In this document: positions 3,143-63,954 of the stretch, piece after piece
Numbering within the stretch: the first letter of the stretch is position 1
Layout: each line of letters begins with the position of its first letter
NCBI GenBank assembly: GCA_963706325.1
Contig: CAVPLT010000001.1
Span: forward strand, 448,001 to 512,000
DNA length: 64,000 bases
DNA from: an uncultured Nitrospiraceae bacterium
Lineage (GTDB): Bacteria; Nitrospirota; Nitrospiria; Nitrospirales; Nitrospiraceae
Reading direction: 5' to 3'
The notes under the pieces: model-generated
What the model was told of the DNA's origin: nothing
What the model saw: the letters and a program-made list of their open reading frames with translations, nothing else
Database searches by the model: none
Program-made: the position numbers and the translations under genes

Positions 3143-3643
3143 CTAGATAGAGGAACGGGGCCCGAAGGATTCGGTATGGGCATGCACAAACGCGAGGAGG
3201 CGCTTGTTCTCCTGTGCTGCCCGTAAAAATTTGAAGGCGATTCCACGAGAACTCACGGATCGGACCATCGCGGCAACCTCGAGCGGAGCTTGTTCATCGT
3301 CCAGCGCGATTTGCAGATAAAAGATGTCGTCCACGTGCACAGGGGAGTGGCTTTCGATAATGCACCCGCCCATCGATATATCCAAAACCGTTCCCTCTCC
3401 GCGCACCTTCCCACCTGAAAACGATAGGAATAAACGCACTGGAATCCGCAGATGCTCGCGCCGATCGACCGTGTGATTCGGATAACTGCGCCCCAGACGA
3501 GAGGCTGGGAAACGAAAGCTGCAGTCTTGGCAATGAAATGGGGAAATGTATGCGAGTGACTGCAGGCGTTCCATGAAAGTGTGACATGGAGAACGGAATA
3601 CCTTGTCTTGGCCACATTGCGGGCAGATCAACGGTTGTGCCAT
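3143..3643 (-). CDS. PilZ-domain protein with N-terminal CxxC...CxxC zinc ribbon
   Basis: RREHLR and DISMGG c-di-GMP-binding PilZ motifs; CPQC...CQDC at N-terminus. Confidence 0.85.
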   Translation of the reverse strand: MAQPLICPQCGQDKVFRSPCHTFMERLQSLAYISPFHCQDCSFRFPASRLGRSYPNHTVDRREHLRIPVRLFLSFSGGKVRGEGTVLDISMGGCIIESHSPVHVDDIFYLQIALDDEQAPLEVAAMVRSVSSRGIAFKFLRAAQENKRLLAFVHAHTESFGPRSSI

Positions 3644-4101
3644 GCTTGATGTTCGACGGATATCATCGCCGCTCTCCCGAACGCGCAGTCGTCCGAGATC
3701 TGCCCGGTTTTGGTTCTTCCTGCCCATTCCACGTAGAGGAGTCTGCTAGCTTCACCATTCGTTCACACAAAATTCGTCGACCCCTGCACGAATAGACCCC
3801 TAGCCTGCGATCGCACGTTCCGAAGACCCCTCAGCGCTATTAAACCGATAAAGGATGATGAAAGTTCTGTCAAGAAACTCGGCGGATCTTCGCCGACTAG
3901 GCCACCAGTGCCATACATGAATGCTGCCTTTTCTGGAAACTTGATAGGTTTAAACTAACCCAGCAACTACTTTATAAATTGAAACTGTATTAACGTGTTT
4001 TAACGTTTCACTAATATCCCTCTAATCTCGCTTTGTTATGGTCTTCCTCACATGGGCACGCCCCTTACAAGATGGGGCACAATCCTAAGGAGGTAGAAGC
4101 C

Positions 4102-7208: not shown

Positions 7209-7368
7209 AGCCCTGGGCCATCATCCCCGTCACGAGAAGCCCCAATGCCGTATGCAGCCATGCCGTATCAGGATATTCCAATCCATAGATGCCCAGCATA
7301 AATCCCACGGCAATGAATACGATGCCCATCCCCCGCGCGATCAATGCATTGGTCCGTAAATCAGGCAT
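7153..7368 (-). CDS. Small two-TM membrane protein
   Basis: Two hydrophobic segments; co-oriented in gene run. Confidence 0.6.
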   Translation of the reverse strand: MPDLRTNALIARGMGIVFIAVGFMLGIYGLEYPDTAWLHTALGLLVTGMMAQGYAMYCSIRWIREHRDSEQ

Positions 7369-53800: not shown

Positions 53801-53849
53801 TATGTGGCGCCGGAACTGATTCGAGCGGAGTTTGGAGAAAGGAGTGTGC

Positions 53850-55058
53850 ATGCTGAATCTTGAAGACATCGAAGCGGCAGCCCGCCGGATCAAATCGGCA
53901 GTCTACGAGTCTCCACTGGTGCACTCTAAAATGCTGTCCGACCTGACAGGCAATGCGATCTATTTGAAGCTCGAGAATCTGCAAATGACGGGCTCGTTCA
54001 AGGAACGCGGCGCATTGAACCGCATCCTGACGATGACCGACGACGAGAAGCGGCGCGGCGTGATAGCGGCCTCGGCAGGGAACCACGGGCAGGGGGTCGC
54101 CTATCATGCCGCCAGGCGCGGTATCCCGGCCCAAATCTGGATGCCTCGCTCGACACCGATGGTCAAGCTAGCCGCCACCCGTGCCCATGGCGCCGAGGTC
54201 GTGCTGCATGGGACCTCCTACGATGAGGCATATGAAGGCGCCGTCGAACGGAGCCTGCAGACGAACGCGACATTTGTCCACGCGTTCGATGACGAAGCGG
54301 TGATCGCCGGACAAGGCACCATCGGTTTGGAGATTCTGGCCCAGAACCCGGCGTTGGATGTCATCGTCGCCCCGGTCGGGGGAGGCGGGCTCATTGCGGG
54401 CGTCGGTTGCGCCCTGAAAGGAAGACACGCAGGAATCGAGGTCATCGGCGTTCAAACCTCCCGCCTTCCATCGATGACCGCGGCCCTGAAGTCGAAGATG
54501 CCGGTGAGTCTTCCCCCCGCTTCTACCCTGGCGGACGGAATCGCTGTACGAAGGGCGGGCGCACTCACCCTGCCGCTGGTCAGCAAATATGTGGACCACA
54601 TGGTCACGGTCGAGGAAGCGGACATCGCCGCGGCGATTCTCGTGTTGCTGGAACAGGAGAAAACCTTAGCGGAGGGAGCGGGGGCGATTGCGCTGGCGGC
54701 GGTGCTGCAGGGCAAAACCGGCCATCGTGGCAAACACATTGCCGTATTGGTATCAGGCGGTAATCTTGATGTGAACGTGCTCGCCAGAATCATAGAACAG
54801 GGCATGGTCCGCGATGGGCGACGGCTGCGCTTACGGGTGCGACTGCCCGATTATCCGGGGGCGTTGGAAAGACTGGCCTCGGTGATTGCCAAAGCCAATG
54901 CCAACATTGTGGAGACTTCCTACAACCGTGCACATTATGGAGTGAGTTTAAACGAAGCCGCAATTGACATTACGATGGAAACCCGCGGACGCCATCACGC
55001 CTCGGAATTGTTGGCGACCCTGAAGGATTCGCAGTATGAATATAGTCTGGTGGAATAA
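53850..55058 (+). CDS. ilvA: Threonine/serine ammonia-lyase with C-terminal ACT domain
   Basis: KLENLQMTGSFKERGA, SAGNHGQG, VGGGGL, SGGNLD, LPDYPGAL ACT domain; AAAGGAG RBS. Confidence 0.92.
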   Translation: MLNLEDIEAAARRIKSAVYESPLVHSKMLSDLTGNAIYLKLENLQMTGSFKERGALNRILTMTDDEKRRGVIAASAGNHGQGVAYHAARRGIPAQIWMPRSTPMVKLAATRAHGAEVVLHGTSYDEAYEGAVERSLQTNATFVHAFDDEAVIAGQGTIGLEILAQNPALDVIVAPVGGGGLIAGVGCALKGRHAGIEVIGVQTSRLPSMTAALKSKMPVSLPPASTLADGIAVRRAGALTLPLVSKYVDHMVTVEEADIAAAILVLLEQEKTLAEGAGAIALAAVLQGKTGHRGKHIAVLVSGGNLDVNVLARIIEQGMVRDGRRLRLRVRLPDYPGALERLASVIAKANANIVETSYNRAHYGVSLNEAAIDITMETRGRHHASELLATLKDSQYEYSLVE

Positions 55059-55310
55059 ACACCGGCGGGATCATCGAGAAAAACAACAACGGCCACTTTC
55101 CTGCGCCCTGTGGCGCCCGATTGCCGACCGGCTCCCGGAATTTTTCTTGCATTCTTCGCCCTTCACAGCTAGATCTAACACAGTTTTTCGGTGGTGCCGT
55201 CCAGCGGTCGTGACTCATGCGCGACCTGGACCCACGTGTGTGTTAATGCAATGAGACAGGCAGTATGGTCTTGCCGGTGGTTCCCCCGCGGGAAAGGCCG
55301 GGGACAGTGC

Positions 55311-55362
55311 AGGCCAGTCGTTGGTCCTTTTCTTAAGGACCGTCGGTTGGCCTTTTTCTTTT
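55311..55362 (+). terminator. Intrinsic-terminator-like hairpin immediately upstream of the DAB operon
   Basis: AGGCCAGTCGTTGGTCCTT-ttctt-AAGGACCGTCGGTTGGCCT followed by TTTTCTTTT. Confidence 0.75.
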
Positions 55363-55383
55363 CATGAGCCGAATGGATTCCGC

Positions 55384-57083
55384 ATGGTCTTGCTAGTGCT
55401 CGTGCCGCTCTTGCCACTGTTGACAGCGTTCATCGTGATGACCGGTCATCGCGCCGATCAAGATCAGACTGCGAAGGCCGGCCTGTTCCCTATCGTCGCC
55501 GCCTTCGTTGGGGCGCTCGTCACTCTGGTGCTCGTGCCCTCCGAGGGGGCTATCACGGTACAATTCTATGACCCGGCCGCCATGGCCAATCTCGCCTTTC
55601 CCATCGGATTCTACATCGACCGGCTGAGCGCGGTCATGATGGTCCTGATTTCGGGAGTGACCGCGCTCATCTATCGCTACTCGGTGGGCTACATGTACCA
55701 AGATCGCGGCTATCGCCGATACCTCGGGCTACTCGGCATCACCACCTCGGTACTACTCTGCATGGTGTGCAGCGCCAATCTGGTGATGTTATTTATGTTT
55801 TGGCAAATTCTTCCCTGGCTTCTCTTTCTCGCTGGCGCACAACCACGGGCATGTCGCGACGCTCGCGGGCGCCTCCAACACCTTTACGCTCTTGCGCCTC
55901 GGCGACGTGGTCTTTCTCGCCGGGATTGTGCTGGCCTATTCGCTCTATGGCACCTTCGAGTTTCAGGCGCTGTTCGCTCGCGCCGCGGAGATTCCCGTGA
56001 CCCTGTCTCTCTGGCCTGCTCTGGCTGGGAAATGGACGGCGTCACGGCGGTGACCTTGCTCATTTTCGTCGGCGCCATGAGCAAGTCGGCTCAGTTCCCG
56101 CTCCATACGTGGCTTCCACGATCGCTCTATGCGCCGACGCCGGTCCACGCGCTGCTGCATGCCGGCATCATCAACGCGGGAGGCTTTTTACTGAACCGAC
56201 TCGCCCCGCTCTATGGTCTGAGTCCCGACCACGCTTGCACGTCGTATTCCTCATCGGCATGCTGACCGCCATTCTCGGCGCGACTATGATGTTGACCCAG
56301 AACGACATCAAGAAGACGCTCGGCTTTTCGACCATCGGCCAGATGGGCTACATGATTATGGAATGCGGGTTGGGCGCGTTTTCCCTCGCCGTGTTCCATC
56401 TCATCGCGCACGGACTGTTCAAGGGCTACCGTCTTTTTGAACTGCGGCAACGTGATTCATAAGGCCCGACAAGAACCCTCGTTCCCGCAGGCCGGTCACG
56501 AGGCGGAAGACAGCCAGATTCTCCAACCTGACCTGGTCCACCGGATTCGTGACGACGCTCCTCTTGCCGCTCGTGATCCTCTTGGTCACGCATGGCATCT
56601 TGAGAATTCCGCTGCTGGAATCGCAGGGGACCGTGATCTTTCTGTTCTTTATCTGGGTCACGTCCTCGCAGGCCATTCTGTCATTGACGCGCATTCGCGC
56701 CGTCGCGTCCTGGAAGGTGTCCGCCGCCATGCTGCTTACGCTCATCTTCGTCCTGTTCACCTACCTGTTCGCGGTCGAGAGCTTCACGCATTTCCTTTAC
56801 CCCGATCCCGATGAGGTGGCGTCGTACTTTCGAGGCCGCGGCATTGCCGGGCCGGCTCTTCGATCGCCTGGTGTCGGGCACGACGTTGTTGACGTCCTCG
56901 GCTGGTTTTACGTCTATGCCCATGCGCATGGGCGGACGATCCGCATGCCAGCCTGGATTGAAGGGTCTTCTGACTCGTCTGTATGTCCTGTTTATGAATC
57001 GACTCTATCTCGACGCAGCTGTATTTCAAACTCGGCCGGGTCGTGACGCTGGTCGCCCATCGGCTGGAGAAACGGTCTCGTGA
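55384..57083 (+). CDS. NuoL/ND5-like membrane subunit of DAB inorganic-carbon transporter (DabB-like), several frameshifts
   Basis: IDRLSAVM, KSAQFPLHTWLP..APTPVHALLHAGIINAGG, STIGQMG, HLIAHGLFK across fragments; upstream of DUF2309. Confidence 0.85.
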
Positions 57084-57143
57084 CGATGTCCGCACCAGGA
57101 ACGCACACGTCAGCGATCCGCTATGCCTGGCCGGAGGCCGGTC

Positions 57144-58468
57144 ATGATACAGGCTTGGATGACGCCCTGGCTTCTCGTCGCCATTCCGTGCCCTCGGCGC
57201 GGTCCTCAGCCTGCTCTGGTGGTCCTCGCTTCACCGGATGAAAACCTGGGGCGCTCACTCACCGCGATGGCGAGCTTGCTCGCGTGATGGCCCTGTCGTG
57301 GGTGCAGGACCGAGTCGCTCGCCGGCATGCCGTTACTCTGCCTGCTCCCATTGACGGCGTTCCTCTCGCTGCTTGGGACAGCCGCTGCACCCGGATAACC
57401 GCGCTGGCCTGGTCTGTCGACGTTGGTGCTGTTGGGATTGGGATTGGGAATTCTGACCGGTCAGGAACTGCCTCGCAGCTTCATGCTTGTCATCCTTCTT
57501 GGGCTTTTCTGCGGCTTGCATCTCTCGTTCGCGGAATGGCGCCTCCCTGAAGTCTGGCGAGCGCTGGCGATCCTACGGCCTGGGCATGGCCTCGGCCATG
57601 CTGTCCCTGGTTCTCCCGAGCACCGGCGTCCACAGTCGCTGTCCTGGTCACCTGTGCGACCCTCCTCCCTCTGTTTCCTCTGCACGGAGGATTCGTCGCG
57701 AGCCCTCACCGGATTGCCGGGCAATCTTCCCGCGTTTGCAGTCGTGCTGTTGCCCGTGGTCGGCTTTCACAGCCTCCTGCTAGGCTGCTTCCGAACCTGA
57801 CCGGAGCGATGCTTCCAACTCGTGACCATTCTGGCGCTGGTGGGCGCCTGTTATGGTTCGCTCCTGGCATGGATCAGTCACGCGTCCTCTCTCGCCTCGC
57901 CTACGCAGGCCTTGCCTTCTTGTCAATACTCTGGTGGTATGTCGCAGGCACGGGAACTGCGCCCGTGCAAACCACTGGTGTACCTCAGCGCCGTCGGCCT
58001 CGCGATGAGCGGGCTTTTGCTCGCCTGGTACTCGATTCGGGCTCGCTACGGCGACATCGACGTGCGCTCGCTTGGCGGCATTGGCTTACCCTATGCCGCG
58101 CTTCAGTACCCTGCTGTCGTTGCTGGCACTCGCGGCCCTCGGCATGCCGCCCTTCGGTGTCTTTTCCGGCTTCATGGGCATGCTGCTCAATCCTGCCTTC
58201 TCTCCTTCGGGACCGTTCGCCGTCATCATGCTCGTCTGGCTCAGCGCATCCTGGTACTTTCTGGATACTGGTGCAATCGGTTGGTCTTCGGCCGGCAACG
58301 GCCGGATCTGCGGTATGAAGACCTGCACCAGACGGAATTCGCGTCTCTCCTGATGCTGCTGGTTCTCCTGTTGGCCCTCGGCATCGCTCCCTTCTCGACT
58401 CTTTCAGTCGAACGCCACCACTCCATCGGAGGCTGTGGCGATCAAGGCTGCCGACATGGATCCAGTAG
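57144..58468 (+). CDS. Second proton-translocating (NuoM/MrpD-like) membrane subunit, many frameshifts
   Basis: GGAGG RBS; hydrophobic fragments incl. LAALGMPPFGVFSGF. Confidence 0.65.
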
Positions 58469-61400
58469 ACACAACGGACCACAGACCGGACCTCGAAGCG
58501 CGACGTATGGAGTTGCGGGGAATGATTCGCCTCGCCAGCGAGGTGATCGCCCAATACTGGCCCATGCGGACGTTCGTCCACCACAATCCGCTGCATAGCC
58601 TGGAGTATCTTCCGTTCACTGAGACGGTTCGTCGCGGCCAACAGTTCTTGGGAGGGCAGCGGCTATCTTCCGGGTGAACGTGTATCGACGCTATCTGAAG
58701 TCCGGCAGGATTCAGGTCCCCACATCGAGGAAGCATTGGCTCCGCTGGCGCGTGATCAGGAAGTGACCCTCGGACCCTGCAGCATTTCGCACCGTGAGGT
58801 GTTGCGGGCCTGCATGACACACGGACTGTCCACGTCCATGCACGAACCGCTCGATCCTCTGATGAGACGCGAGCCGAATGAGGAGCAAATCGAAGCTCTG
58901 GCCGAGCGCTTGGTTCCTTTTCGCGCCGACCGTCAAGGAACGCATGACCACCACGGTCCGCGAGGACTGTGGCCGCGTTGGGACGACAATTGACCCTCAC
59001 GGTTGGTGCGATCAAACGCTCGGCACCCAGATCGTGAACCAGATCAACGGCGAGTTGATCAAGTGGTGTGAGGCCTTTCTGGACGAGGGACATGCCACCT
59101 GGTCGATGCCTGGGACGGGAACAGGGTCTCTACGCGGCGTGGAAACGACTGGCGGTGAAGCGAATGGACGACTTGCGGTATCGCGGAGAGTCGCCGGAAA
59201 ATTGCATCCGCTGTCCGGAGCATCCCGAGGACACGGTGTTTGACTGCCTCGAAGCGTTGGCGATTCCCGCGGAGTTCCGTCACGATTACCTCTCGCTCCA
59301 ACTCGCCGCCCTTCCCGGTTGGGCTGGATTCATCAAATGGCGTGCGGAAGAGGACGCGCTATGCCTGGCAACAGGCCTATCCCGTCGGACTGGTCAAGTT
59401 TCTCGCTGTCCGCTTGTGGTACGTGCGCGAACTGGTCCAGAAAGTTTGCCAAGAAGAATTGGGTATCGAGGGAAACTATCGCGCGAGTCTCAACCTATAT
59501 GGAAGCAGCATCCCCATGCCTACTTCATGCGTAAGGAACAGGCCGCGGGACGGTTGCCGCCCGTCTATGCCGAACGAGTCGATCGCCTCCATGCCCAGAC
59601 GCAGCAGGACGCCAGGCGATCGGCAGCCTTGTCGCACGAGTGGGAACAGCTCACGCAGCAGTACCAGATGGAATTCGGATCGCCATCGCGAGCAGGCCGC
59701 GCGCCGAGTCATGGCCCGACGTCTCCTCACTCTCGCCCACGCGCTCGAGATCGTGCCCAGCCGTGTTGATGGAGGTTCCCCGACCGACCTTCGCGTGCTC
59801 GTGGATTGGATGGAGGCCTTTCCGGAATCGGCCCATGGCCCCGTGTGGCTCAAGGCCTTCGAAGCAGGATATCAGGACCATCTGTTCGGCATGCTGCTGC
59901 GCGCGTCGGCCAAGCCCCAACCGGCCGGTCCCGGAACATCAACCGCCGGTGCGGCCCCATTCGCAATCGGTCTTTTGCATTGACGTCCGGTCTGAGCCAT
60001 TCCGCCGCCATTTGGAATCGACCGGCGCAAACGATACGTATGGATTCGCCGGATTCTTCGCAGTCTTCATTCGGTATCGAGCATGGGGCAAGGAACATGA
60101 AACGGAGCAGTTTCCGGTGATCATGCGCGCGAAGAACGAAGTACGCGAGATCCCCCGCAGCTATCTGGATCACTACGTGTCTCAAGCACCAGTCACGGGC
60201 CAAACTCGTCCATGCCGGACATACCCTGTTGCATGATCTCAAGGAAAATGTCGTCACGCCGTACGTCATGGTGGAGTCGATCGGGTGGTTCTACGGCTTA
60301 CCCATTGTCGGGAAGACGGTGCTTCCCGCACTGTACAAACGTATCACCGACTGGGTGCGGCGTCTGTTTGTGCCGCCGATCGCCACCAGCGTCACGGTGG
60401 ACAAATTCGCCCCGGCCGAGACCGAAGAGATGCTGGTCGCCGAACAACGCGCGCTGATATGGAAGGCACTGCGCGATCGGCTCAGTCTCCATGGATCGCG
60501 GGTCGATCCCGAGTTCGTCGAAGCGTTACGACGGCGGGCACTGGACGAGGATGCGCCGGTCGAGCCCTTCTTGAGCAACGCGGCCAAGTCCGTCGGATCT
60601 GTCTGTGCAGAGCAGCTGACGGCGTTTCTCGAGGAACTCCGGGGGCACTACCGGATCAATCGCCGCGCGGCTTCTCGCCAGAAAGAACGGATTACGCGCA
60701 CCGGGTTCACCATCGAGGAGCAGGTCATCACCGTTGAAACCGCCTTGCGCATGATGGGCTTGATCAGGAACTTCGCGCGGCTCGTGCTGTTCTGCGCGCA
60801 CGGAAGCACCGACCGAGAACAACCCGTTCGAATCGGCCCTGGACTGCGGCGCCTGCGGAGGGACACGAAGGGAAACCCAATGCGCGTGTGCTGGCGGCGA
60901 TGGCAAATCGACCGCCGGTCCGAGAACGGCTGACAAGGCGTGGCATCGAGATTCCATCGGATACGCACTTTCGTCGCCGGACAGGTGGACACGACGACCG
61001 ATGAGGTGCAGCTGTTTGATCTCGAAGATGTGCCGCCGACACACCGCAAGGACGTGCGCCCGGTTGCTTGATGACTTGCGAGAAGCCGCCCAATTGACGA
61101 GCCAAGAGCGCTGCACGCGTTTCCCGGATGTCGAACGCCATCCTACCGGTTGCCCGAGGCGCGTCTCTGTGGACGGCCGGAGCGCAGACTGGAGCCAGGT
61201 GCGGCCCGAGTGGGGCCTCTCCAGCAATACGGCCTTCATCATCGGCCGACGAGATCTGACGAAAGGACTCAACCTGTCCGGACGCGTCTTTCTGCACTCC
61301 TACGATTATCGCGAAGATCCGACCGACCGTTGCTCGAAGTGGTGCTGACGGCGCCGCAAGTGGTGGCGCAGTGGATCAATATGGAACATTATTTTTCAGC

Positions 61401-61741
61401 CGTGGACAATGATGTGTACGGAAGCGGCAGCAAGATTTACCACAACGTGGTCGGGCGCGTCGGCGTCATGTCCGGTCCGTGGAGCGATCTCCGACTCGGG
61501 CTGGCGTGGCAGACCGTCATGAACGACGAGCTGCCCTACCACGAACCGATGCGCCTCCTGACGCTGGTCGAGGCGTCGCGCGCGCGCATCGAGATACTCA
61601 TCGCACGACATGAGGTGCTGCAACATTTTTATCACAACGAGTGGGTACACCTGGCCGACACTGGACCCGGAGGACGGAACGTGGTACCGCTATGTACCGT
61701 CCGGTTTCTGGCGTCGGGTCAGGAATCCGGCGGATACGTGA
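58456..61741 (+). CDS. DUF2309 / DabA beta-carbonic-anhydrase-like subunit, many frameshifts
   Basis: WPMRTFVHHNPL, LPGWAGFIKWR, FCIDVRSEPFRRHLE, GFAGFF, HGS, DCGAC, DWSQVRPEWGL, FLHSYD, QWINMEHYFS, YHEPMRL. Confidence 0.9.
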
Positions 61742-61796
61742 GGCACGGGCTAGACATCATCGTGTAAGATTAGGCTTTTTTCAAAGGAGTTGACAT

Positions 61797-62138
61797 ATGG
61801 GCGGACTGACGTTGCATCCCATGAAAGAAATCCGTGTGATCGTGTCGGGTGACAACCGCCCTTCGTGACCGAGCTGTTGGATAGAGTGGAGGCCACCGGA
61901 TACACCATCATCGGCAATATCTCCGGGAAGGGCCATCATGGCGTGCGAGAGGCCCACTTCATGTTCAGCGAACAGGAGAGCCTGGTCATGATCATGACGG
62001 TCGTGCCGGAAGAAAAGGTGGAACCGATGCTCGCCGGGCTGCGACCGCTATTCGAACGATACTCAGGCGTCATGTTCGTCTCTGACGTGACCGTGAGCCG
62101 GCGTGAGTACTTCGGCGAAGAAGGCGCCCAAGTCCTGA
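61797..62138 (+). CDS. PII-like (SbtB/DUF190-type) signalling protein; frameshift near 61860, end approximate
   Basis: AAAGGAG RBS; MKEIRVIV...ATGYTIIGNISGKGHHG...VMFVSDVTVSRREYF. Confidence 0.8.
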
Positions 62139-62346
62139 GTCCACCGTCCCGGACCCCGCTCCTATCAGAGCTCGCGCGACGATGGGCTGAACCTTGTCTT
62201 TGTAGTACTGATTGTCTACAATGTGCGCGGCTTGACCTGTAAGAGGAAGGACAGGACGTGAAGGGACTTACGGTTCGAACGGCTCGGACGAAACCGCCAT
62301 TACAATATCATTTTCCACATCGGCAGCAGCTATGTACCGGTAAGCG

Positions 62347-63626: not shown

Positions 63627-63655
63627 TTGATCCCAAATTGGGATCATGGTAGACT
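63627..63655 (+). promoter_or_regulatory. higBA promoter with overlapping palindromic operator
   Basis: TTGATC-N17-TAGACT; perfect IR TGATCCCAA-A-TTGGGATCA at 63628-63646. Confidence 0.7.
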
Positions 63656-63660
63656 GCCCC

Positions 63661-63954
63661 GTGCGCATCATCGCGAAGCGGACTCTAGGCACATTCTGGA
63701 ATCGGTACCCGCGCGCGCGAGGACCTTTAGAAGCCTGGCATCAGGAAGTGGTTCATGCAGACTGGACAAGCCCGTCGGAGCTTAAAGCTCAGTTTCGCTC
63801 AGCGAGTGTGCTGCAAGGCAGCCGCGCGGTGTTCAACATTGCAGGGAACCAGTACCGATTGGTGGTGAAGATTAACTACGCCTATCGGATTGTCTATATC
63901 CGTTTCGTCGGCACCCATCAAGAGTATGACCAGATCGATGTACACACCGTCTGA
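63661..63954 (+). CDS. higB: Type II TA toxin HigB
   Basis: MRIIAKRTL..FW...LEAW...W...VFNIAGNQYRLVVKINY..VYIRFVGTHQEYD. Confidence 0.92.
   Translation: MRIIAKRTLGTFWNRYPRARGPLEAWHQEVVHADWTSPSELKAQFRSASVLQGSRAVFNIAGNQYRLVVKINYAYRIVYIRFVGTHQEYDQIDVHTV

Follow-up and report, generated by a model that had tools for sequence, protein, structure and literature searches.

The 64,000-nt stretch of DNA from an uncultured Nitrospiraceae bacterium analysed here (the window; contig CAVPLT010000001.1) contains, at positions 55180-55363, one copy of a conserved leader-RNA family that probably attenuates the transcription of inorganic-carbon uptake genes in the manner of a riboswitch. The leader, of about 184 nt, is composed of two stem-loops (SL1 and SL2) and a terminator behind a promoter-like site, and lies in the 325 nt that separate the stop codon of an ilvA-like gene (55058) from the ATG of the dabB frame at 55384, where the genes of a DAB (CO2/bicarbonate uptake) operon begin. 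This leader, found across Nitrospira and relatives, corresponds to none of the catalogued RNA families and likely acts as a genetic switch. Its parts in the window are as follows.

55147..55175, plus strand: promoter-like site (TTGCAT at 55147-55152, 17-nt spacer, TAGATC at 55170-55175; start predicted at about 55181-55184)
55180..55363, plus strand: whole leader RNA (full-length match to the whole-leader covariance model R1, 181.6 bits, E 8e-46, the sole match in the genome)
55191..55235, plus strand: SL1, variable 5' stem-loop (RNAalifold; pairings GUGG/CCAC, CCG/CGG and GGUCGUG/CGCGACC)
55259..55261, plus strand: invariant GGY just 5' of SL2 (G in 78/78, G in 78/78, C in 73 and U in 5)
55263..55310, plus strand: SL2, conserved core, presumably the sensor domain (four short helices with conserved internal loops between them)
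55311..55363, plus strand: intrinsic terminator (hairpin 55311-55353, U tract 55353-55363)

The terminator hairpin (55311-55353) has 18 pairs and a folding energy of -26.8 kcal/mol (z = -4.23), a stability reached by none of 200 shuffles, and is followed directly by the U tract TTTTTCTTTTC at 55353-55363. It begins 253 nt past the end of the ilvA stop codon. The first-pass annotation, which had placed a hairpin with a U tract just before a DabB-like ATG, was correct in its coordinates and distances. A stable, G+C-rich hairpin with a U tract thus stands on the transcribed strand, as in intrinsic terminators; on the minus strand the hairpin is weaker (-23.9 kcal/mol) because of three G-U pairs. 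The T-rich tail is present in 79 of 79 family sequences. A simple terminator scan called only a 6-pair sub-hairpin (55312-55326) within the leader hairpin, and its 2 sites in 54000-56500 are no excess over the shuffle mean of 2.3; the support for the terminator is therefore folding and conservation, not the scan.

In an alignment of 24 sequences, conservation sets in abruptly at GACTTTTC-CTTGCAAT-(17-18 nt)-TAsATCT and is unbroken through to the U tract, and the flanks on both sides (further 5' of the promoter-like site, and the approximately 20 nt from the U tract to the ATG) are unalignable. This motif is read as a putative promoter, from which the transcription start is predicted, and sites resembling TTGAC(N17-18)TATnAt are situated at an equal distance from the leader in other genera. 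The same anatomy, namely a promoter-like site, a structured leader and a terminator, is recognized in every copy, whatever gene lies downstream. In the genus the dabB ATG follows the U tract after only about 20 nt, too short a gap to hold a further promoter, as had been proposed from the window alone. A sigma-54 promoter reading of GG...TTGCA was rejected, with its spacing off by one to two bases and a single G conserved.

Structure and distribution of the leader RNA

Two covariance models were used for the searches, one of the whole leader (R1) and one of SL2 and the terminator made from 79 sequences (R2). With R1, full-length matches were found in 57 of 151 genomes of the family, spread over 23 of 39 genera. 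R2 matched 107 of the 151 genomes sampled from the order (52 of 62 in family f1, 48 of 62 in f2, six of 21 in f3 and none of five in f4) and 37 of the 151 sampled from the phylum, and some f2 genomes have up to four leader copies. Based on BLAST alone, the leader had seemed restricted to three of the 39 genera, which was overturned by the covariance-model matches. The R2 matches outside the order are weak (21-29 bits) and are not counted as members; one of them (L185) precedes dabB-dabA, and the others (L186, L187, L188 and L191-L193) precede unrelated or unknown genes. A DNA search with the 325-nt spacer matched its positions 104-310, approximately, at 74-88% identity in 23 of the 24 other genomes of the same genus, and found no match in 16 genomes of three other families.

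The fold was evaluated on two alignments: A6, a MAFFT alignment of 79 sequences that was not fitted to the structure, and A5, a covariance-model alignment of 86 sequences, which leans towards its model. On A6, 95.3% of cells pair, compared with 88.3% in shuffles and 30-48% in slid controls, and 14 of the 26 pairs change on both sides (8.4 +/- 0.9 in shuffles; reached by none of 500), with a covariation score of 0.301 against 0.181. The contribution of SL2 to these figures is 93.2% of cells paired and nine of 16 pairs changed on both sides, and that of the lower stem of the terminator is 98.5% and five of ten. On A5, the corresponding values are 95.9% of cells (84.0% in shuffles) and 36 of 48 pairs, including all 14 pairs of SL1, a stem-loop that is short or absent in some family members. 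Within the genus and two sister genera (50 unique sequences, 25 of them from metagenome loci), 97.2% of cells pair, and eight of 48 pairs change on both sides compared with 2.3 +/- 1.2, the sequences being too similar for more. In short, the fold is supported by covariation, and the leader has the conserved structured domain that is typical of riboswitches. The absence of upstream structure from relatives had been named in the first-pass annotation as an outcome that would speak against a regulatory leader; the structure is kept across the order, with covariation.

SL2 is made up of the pairings GUA/UGC (55263-65/55308-10), GUCU/GGAC (55268-71/55302-05), CCGGU/GCCGG (55274-78/55297-301) and UUCCC/GGGAA (55281-85/55290-94), with conserved 2x2 loops and a bulge between them, and the terminator abuts it without a spacer. 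The linker between SL1 and SL2 ends in AGACAGGCAG. Invariant nucleotides of SL2 are GU, G, CAGU and C, and the consensus of the core reads GGYnGUAGGGY..CCGG-[hairpin]-GGCCGGnnnCAGURCA(A/G)GCCA-[variable stem]-UGGCYUUUU. Of the upstream stems drawn earlier from the window, GGTCGTG/CGCGACC (55206-55212/55220-55226) corresponds to the conserved helix P1c of SL1, whereas GGCAG/TTGCC and TCCCC/GGGGA can form in the window sequence but are not among the pairings that relatives retain. In the genus-level leader, the sequence GACAG(G/U)GCAGG occurs twice, in the linker (55254-55263 in the window) and at the junction of SL2 and the terminator (55303-55313); it is not kept as a repeat in other genera. 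A coding reading of the leader was rejected: conservation is not 3-periodic, the lengths of loop indels are not divisible by three, and relatives do not keep the ATG at 55251.

As the first-pass annotation had suspected, the element belongs to no recognised riboswitch class: none of the families in Rfam 15 (4227 models, including the Na+ DUF1646, Li+ nhaA-I, ykkC guanidine-I and 6S RNA models) matches it. At E up to 10 in the interval 54500-56000, only mir-1250 fell on the element (17.3 bits, E 4.4), and the other match, a frameshift element, is on the minus strand inside dabB. At six divergent loci, nothing was found on the element at E up to 1; the radC matches there, which stay under the threshold and lie within SulP genes on the other strand, were discarded. 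A literature search, with subscription journals and supplements outside its scope, found no such RNA in connection with DabA/DabB, DUF2309, bicarbonate/CO2, Nitrospira or Nitrospirota. In the parts covered of two discovery papers from the Breaker laboratory (PMC11109978 and PMC8632094), Nitrospira, bicarbonate, SulP and carbonic anhydrase are not mentioned.

Genes behind the leader

For copies outside the genus, the downstream gene was taken as the first same-strand tblastn match of five query proteins that starts at most 700 nt downstream. The 109 copies were examined in two sets, one of 72 and another of 37, the latter drawn from 16 additional genomes, and 99 of them directly precede, in sense orientation, one of five types of inorganic-carbon genes, as listed here with the first downstream gene and the counts in the sets of 72 and 37.

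DabB: 47 and 3, in total 50/109
DabA: 6 and 12, in total 18/109
SulP: 5 and 12, in total 17/109
MnhE (Mrp-like operon): 4 and 9, in total 13/109
LCIB carbonic anhydrase: 1 and 0, in total 1/109
None of the five query genes: 8 and 1, in total 9/109
Contig end: 1 and 0, in total 1/109

Pfam agrees with these assignments (PF00916 for SulP, PF10070 for DabA and PF18599 for the LCIB-type beta-carbonic anhydrase) and recognizes MNHE, MbhD/E, MnhB and NuoK-like domains in the Mrp-like operon. The carbonic anhydrase gene (PF18599, 6e-53; L117:1698-2498 in the Nitrospiraceae genome G054) is directly behind a leader copy of 58 bits. The SulP proteins score 123.6 bits against the NCBIfam BicA model, far under its cut-off of 880, and their designation as bicarbonate carriers is thus putative. 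Weak leader matches (22-29 bits) likewise precede SulP, DabA or DabB, and one contig carries two leader copies with a dabB behind each. Judged from these gene contents, the genes behind the leader appear to form an inorganic-carbon uptake regulon. A shared RNA switch would tie the Mrp-like operons and the SulP carriers functionally to DabA.

A different arrangement exists in family f2 (L178, that is, G040:C1:1204000-1222000, as well as L179, L195, L196, L201 and L202), in which dabA is not followed by dabB. There, dabA is located between a SulP gene and the Mrp-like operon, an HtrA-like protease gene comes after dabA, and a leader copy stands before each of SulP, dabA and the Mrp-like operon, all three within 8-12 kb. 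The Mrp-like complex of f2 may be the membrane partner of DabA.

This gene context bears on the view that the element is a stand-alone gene for a trans-acting small RNA beside dab, with dab transcribed by leak-through or from elsewhere. Such a gene would agree with the promoter-like site and strong terminator of the element itself, from which a discrete RNA of about 180 nt would be expected to accumulate, and with its unusually conserved primary sequence, which resembles a seed region. However, a small-RNA gene should be independent of any particular downstream gene, and the position of the element is fixed: it is always sense, with carbon-uptake genes directly behind it at 22 of the 24 loci of the genus and for 99 of the 109 copies from elsewhere, different operons stand behind the multiple copies of one genome, the approximately 20 nt before the dabB ATG in the genus leave no place for a promoter, and the only copy in the present genome precedes a dead operon. 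We regard a small-RNA gene as highly improbable.

Within the genus, a single-frame dabB is situated just downstream of the leader at 22 of the 24 loci, one of the remaining two being at a contig end and the other (G023) having lost DAB. The upstream side differs from that in the window: where upstream sequence is available (22 loci), ilvA occurs only twice, and the other 20 loci carry a divergent selO without it. Between selO and the leader, ilvA is found in one sub-lineage only (the window, G022, G201 and G023), and G201 (L045 and L098, G201:C61) carries it together with intact DAB genes. A leader copy also stands before dabB in the complete chromosome of Ca. Nitrospira defluvii (FP929003.1, L047). 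In G023 (L040, G023:C3:58905-70977), the core of the leader is lost, and DAB is reduced to a C-terminal remnant of dabA and the P-II-like gene. Since ilvA is missing at most loci of the genus, it is a recent insertion in this sub-lineage, and the hairpin is older. Downstream of ilvA in the window, no strong terminator comes before the leader hairpin; at about 55128-55146 there is just a weak CCGG hairpin of 4 bp followed by a U run, and the leader hairpin may also stop read-through from ilvA. That it is nothing but an ordinary ilvA terminator with chance upstream stems, an outcome raised in the first-pass annotation as a refutation, has a negligible probability, because 20 of the 22 loci retain the hairpin while ilvA is missing, and because the hairpin and SL2 are conserved order-wide with covariation.

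Proposed switch and its signal

The first-pass annotation had proposed a riboswitch-like or protein-dependent attenuator for DAB, and this proposal gains support from the hairpin and upstream structure, whose conservation greatly exceeds that of neutral sequence, from the covariation and the recurrent inorganic-carbon gene context. The proposed mechanism is as follows. Transcription would start about 130 nt 5' of the terminator and, by default, end there; the terminator state is more stable than the alternative state with the P1 helix by a median of 8.4 kcal/mol in 79 sequences, so that the default would be OFF. The signal, sensed by the SL2 core, would stabilise a short helix between GGY (55259-61) and GCC (55313-15), by which the bound SL2 would extend into a P1 helix (GGY-n-GUA with URC-AA-GCC) and take the foot of the terminator. 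The terminator, stripped of its base, would then let RNA polymerase read into the genes, which corresponds to an ON logic. The signal may be the inorganic-carbon status, as the regulon suggests, or alternatively a cation or alkaline pH.

The choice of this switching helix depends on the pattern of conservation in the terminator stem. The GCC/GGC of this stem is invariant in 79 of 79 sequences, and the pairs that flank it covary (GC in 42 and AU in 34; GC in 64 and AU in 11), a situation that a second partner would impose; the GGY/GCC helix, which can pair in 100% of cells, is therefore favoured. The competition between AAAGGCC and GGCCTTT suggested in the first-pass annotation is not preferred as the switch. 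This 3' strand of SL2 can pair with the 3' arm and U tract of the terminator in 95.7% of cells of the 79 sequences, but covariation is not above that of shuffles and the helix still lies beside the U tract. A stem next to a U tract should still permit intrinsic termination, and the AAAGGCC helix, which leaves just such a stem, should not prevent it. For the two alternative helices together, 97.0% of cells are pairable compared with 96.9% in shuffles; 301 of 500 shuffles are as high, and there is no covariation. Two other candidates were discarded: the pairing of GGCAU/GGCAG 5' of SL2 with AUGCC/CUGUC after the U tract, which occurs in one Nitrospiraceae lineage only (L112-L118, L124 and L135), and that of the SL1 segment CGAC..GGCC with the 5' arm of the terminator, whose complementarity is not conserved.

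In the adenine riboswitch of the pbuE type, the 3' strand of P1 overlaps the 5' arm of the terminator, termination is the default, and the ligand-stabilised P1 removes the foot of the terminator. The logic proposed here is the same, but the overlap in the leader would comprise only GCC (three pairs), as deduced from invariance, and the aptamer folds are unrelated. The 5' segment of the ykkC (guanidine-I) riboswitch is similar to GUAGGGU..CCGG, and this riboswitch is sometimes found before ABC transporters annotated for nitrate/sulfonate/bicarbonate, and the alx RNA responds to alkaline pH. Neither of the two matched at E up to 10 in the window or at E up to 1 at the six divergent loci, and the resemblance to the leader is deemed superficial.

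As to the nature of the signal, the cyanobacterial CcmR/NdhR and CmpR are LysR-type proteins with a carbon-status regulon of NDH-like CO2-hydrating complexes, SulP/BicA-type and other bicarbonate carriers and mnh antiporters. The composition of the regulon behind the leader is the same, although these proteins bind DNA at promoters and the leader is an RNA at a terminator. On account of this likeness, carbon status is ranked above Na+ or pH. It is possible, though on balance doubtful, that the RNA of the SL2 core itself senses inorganic carbon (bicarbonate/CO2 or a carbon-starvation metabolite) and governs DAB, SulP, LCIB carbonic anhydrase and Mrp-like modules in the nitrite-oxidising Nitrospirales.

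As a sub-case of the attenuator with another signal, a riboswitch for a cation (Na+, Li+ or K+) or alkaline pH might turn on DabB, the Mrp-like modules and Na+-coupled SulP carriers, DabB and the Mrp-like operon being members of the cation/proton antiporter superfamily. One weak leader match (26.5 bits) precedes trkH-trkA. According to the portions covered of the respective papers, the Na+ riboswitch (the DUF1646 motif, 'Sodium' in Rfam; PMC9337991) and the Li+ riboswitches nhaA-I and nhaA-II (PMC9646797) are terminator-based ON switches before cation transporter genes; the Na+ class, one of elemental-ion or small-solute sensing, shares with the leader the intrinsic terminator, the association with ion-transport genes and the proposed ON logic. 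However, the Na+ class gives no covariance match to the leader at E up to 10 and has a different fold consensus, the Li+ riboswitches likewise have no match through Rfam 15 and are associated with other genes, and the regulon of the leader consists of DAB, SulP, LCIB and Mrp-like genes. The dabA-first operons (18 copies) and the LCIB-type carbonic anhydrase (one copy) are not cation genes, and the main text of the Na+ riboswitch paper (PMC9337991) does not contain DUF2309, SulP, bicarbonate or carbonic. We consider a cation or pH signal improbable.

The RNA might not bind a small molecule itself; an RNA-binding protein that recognises its conserved SL2 loops could instead prevent or favour termination, in the manner of BglG/LicT-type or PyrR/TRAP-type attenuators. 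A P-II-like gene closes the operon, and a protein site would suit the invariant unpaired nucleotides of SL2 and the invariant foot of the terminator as well as a ligand pocket would. Yet no candidate gene for an RNA-binding protein travels with the leader, whose neighbours vary by lineage (selO, ilvA and others); MpsC (PF10057) has no match in this 96%-complete genome; none of the target RNAs of known antiterminators in Rfam matches; and the copies before four types of operons have only the RNA in common. We consider such a protein-dependent attenuator unlikely.

Several observations weigh against a riboswitch-type attenuator for carbon uptake. The equal fit of a protein site to the invariant nucleotides is one of them, and another is that the GGY/GCC helix shows no covariation, because nothing in it varies, and rests on invariance. 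The promoter hexamers of the genus are poor (the -10 element is TAsATC), and a consensus scan made no call. The loci that yielded the count of 99 in 109 were the best-scoring and multi-copy matches and not a random sample, and the nine copies without any of the five query genes include good matches, namely L184 (39 bits; 7223-7307, minus strand), with an HtrA-like protease 199 nt downstream, and L137 (41 bits; 3474-3651, minus strand), with a 352-codon open reading frame that has no Pfam match. Finally, the genes behind the leader in the window are dead, so that this copy itself is uninformative on function.

Nitrospira are the main nitrite oxidisers of soils, waters and wastewater plants, and fix CO2. 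To our knowledge, all regulators of CO2-concentrating mechanisms known so far are proteins. If SL2 senses inorganic carbon, it would be the first inorganic-carbon riboswitch, and one over a whole CO2-concentrating regulon; an opinion piece of 2024, in the portion covered, has a question mark where an RNA sensor of CO2 would stand (PMC11259077). An RNA switch before the DAB, SulP, carbonic anhydrase and Mrp-like operons would define an order-wide carbon-uptake regulon directly from sequence, and the leader would provide an experimentally tractable orphan riboswitch whose ligand is an indicator of carbon or ion status.

The copy in this genome

The DAB operon that the first-pass annotation placed behind the leader can be identified gene by gene, but in this genome dabB, gene X and dabA are frameshifted pseudogenes. 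The genes are as follows.

53832..55058, plus strand: ilvA-like threonine dehydratase gene, intact (Pfam PALP 3e-77 and ACT; no indels relative to G201)
55384..57080, plus strand: dabB (NuoL-like DAB subunit), pseudogene (Pfam fragments in several frames; 11 frameshifting indels)
57143..58456, approximate, plus strand: gene X (NuoM/N-like membrane subunit), pseudogene (21 frameshifting indels)
58445..61767, start approximate, plus strand: dabA (PF10070), pseudogene (11 PF10070 fragments over three frames; 25 frameshifting indels)
61865..62242, plus strand: P-II-like gene at the end of the operon, open frame (Pfam P-II 1e-16)

Indels were counted against G201, the closest relative with intact genes (84.6% identity over 8.9 kb), and amount to 57 frameshifting ones across dabB, X and dabA, and to none in ilvA. 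The erosion of dabB-X-dabA (55384-61767) is either real decay or a local assembly problem. The leader itself scores 181.6 bits, compared with about 185-218 for most of the genus, and deviates privately at six columns of 95% conservation or more (genus median, one). One core position is given here.

55266, plus strand: T at a core position (A6 column 11; the window alone has T, and 78 of the 79 sequences have G)

This nucleotide belongs to the GG/AG loop of SL2, which is conserved. Taken with the 57 frameshifts, the private changes look like relaxed selection on a switch whose operon died. With the DAB genes frameshifted, the copy in the window, which is a relic, probably controls nothing useful any more, and it would illustrate, in nature, how a switch can persist after its operon is gone.

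A second, intact DAB pair exists outside the window (G000:C1:83452-88436; DabB of 572 aa and DabA of 1089 aa), which shares about 48% identity with orthologues of the broken genes and, because the leader is single-copy in this genome, has no leader copy. Genes of the X type encode about 440 aa between dabB and dabA (for example, L021:2933-4276, minus strand) and have no Pfam match. An intact orthologue of 447 aa has weak similarity to NuoM and NuoN in NCBIfam (NuoM 6e-19, below the curated cut-off), and X may be a second antiporter-like subunit of this type of DAB. Beyond the operon, an open reading frame at 63646-63954 of the window has a Pfam match to the HigB toxin (RelE-like; 1e-31).

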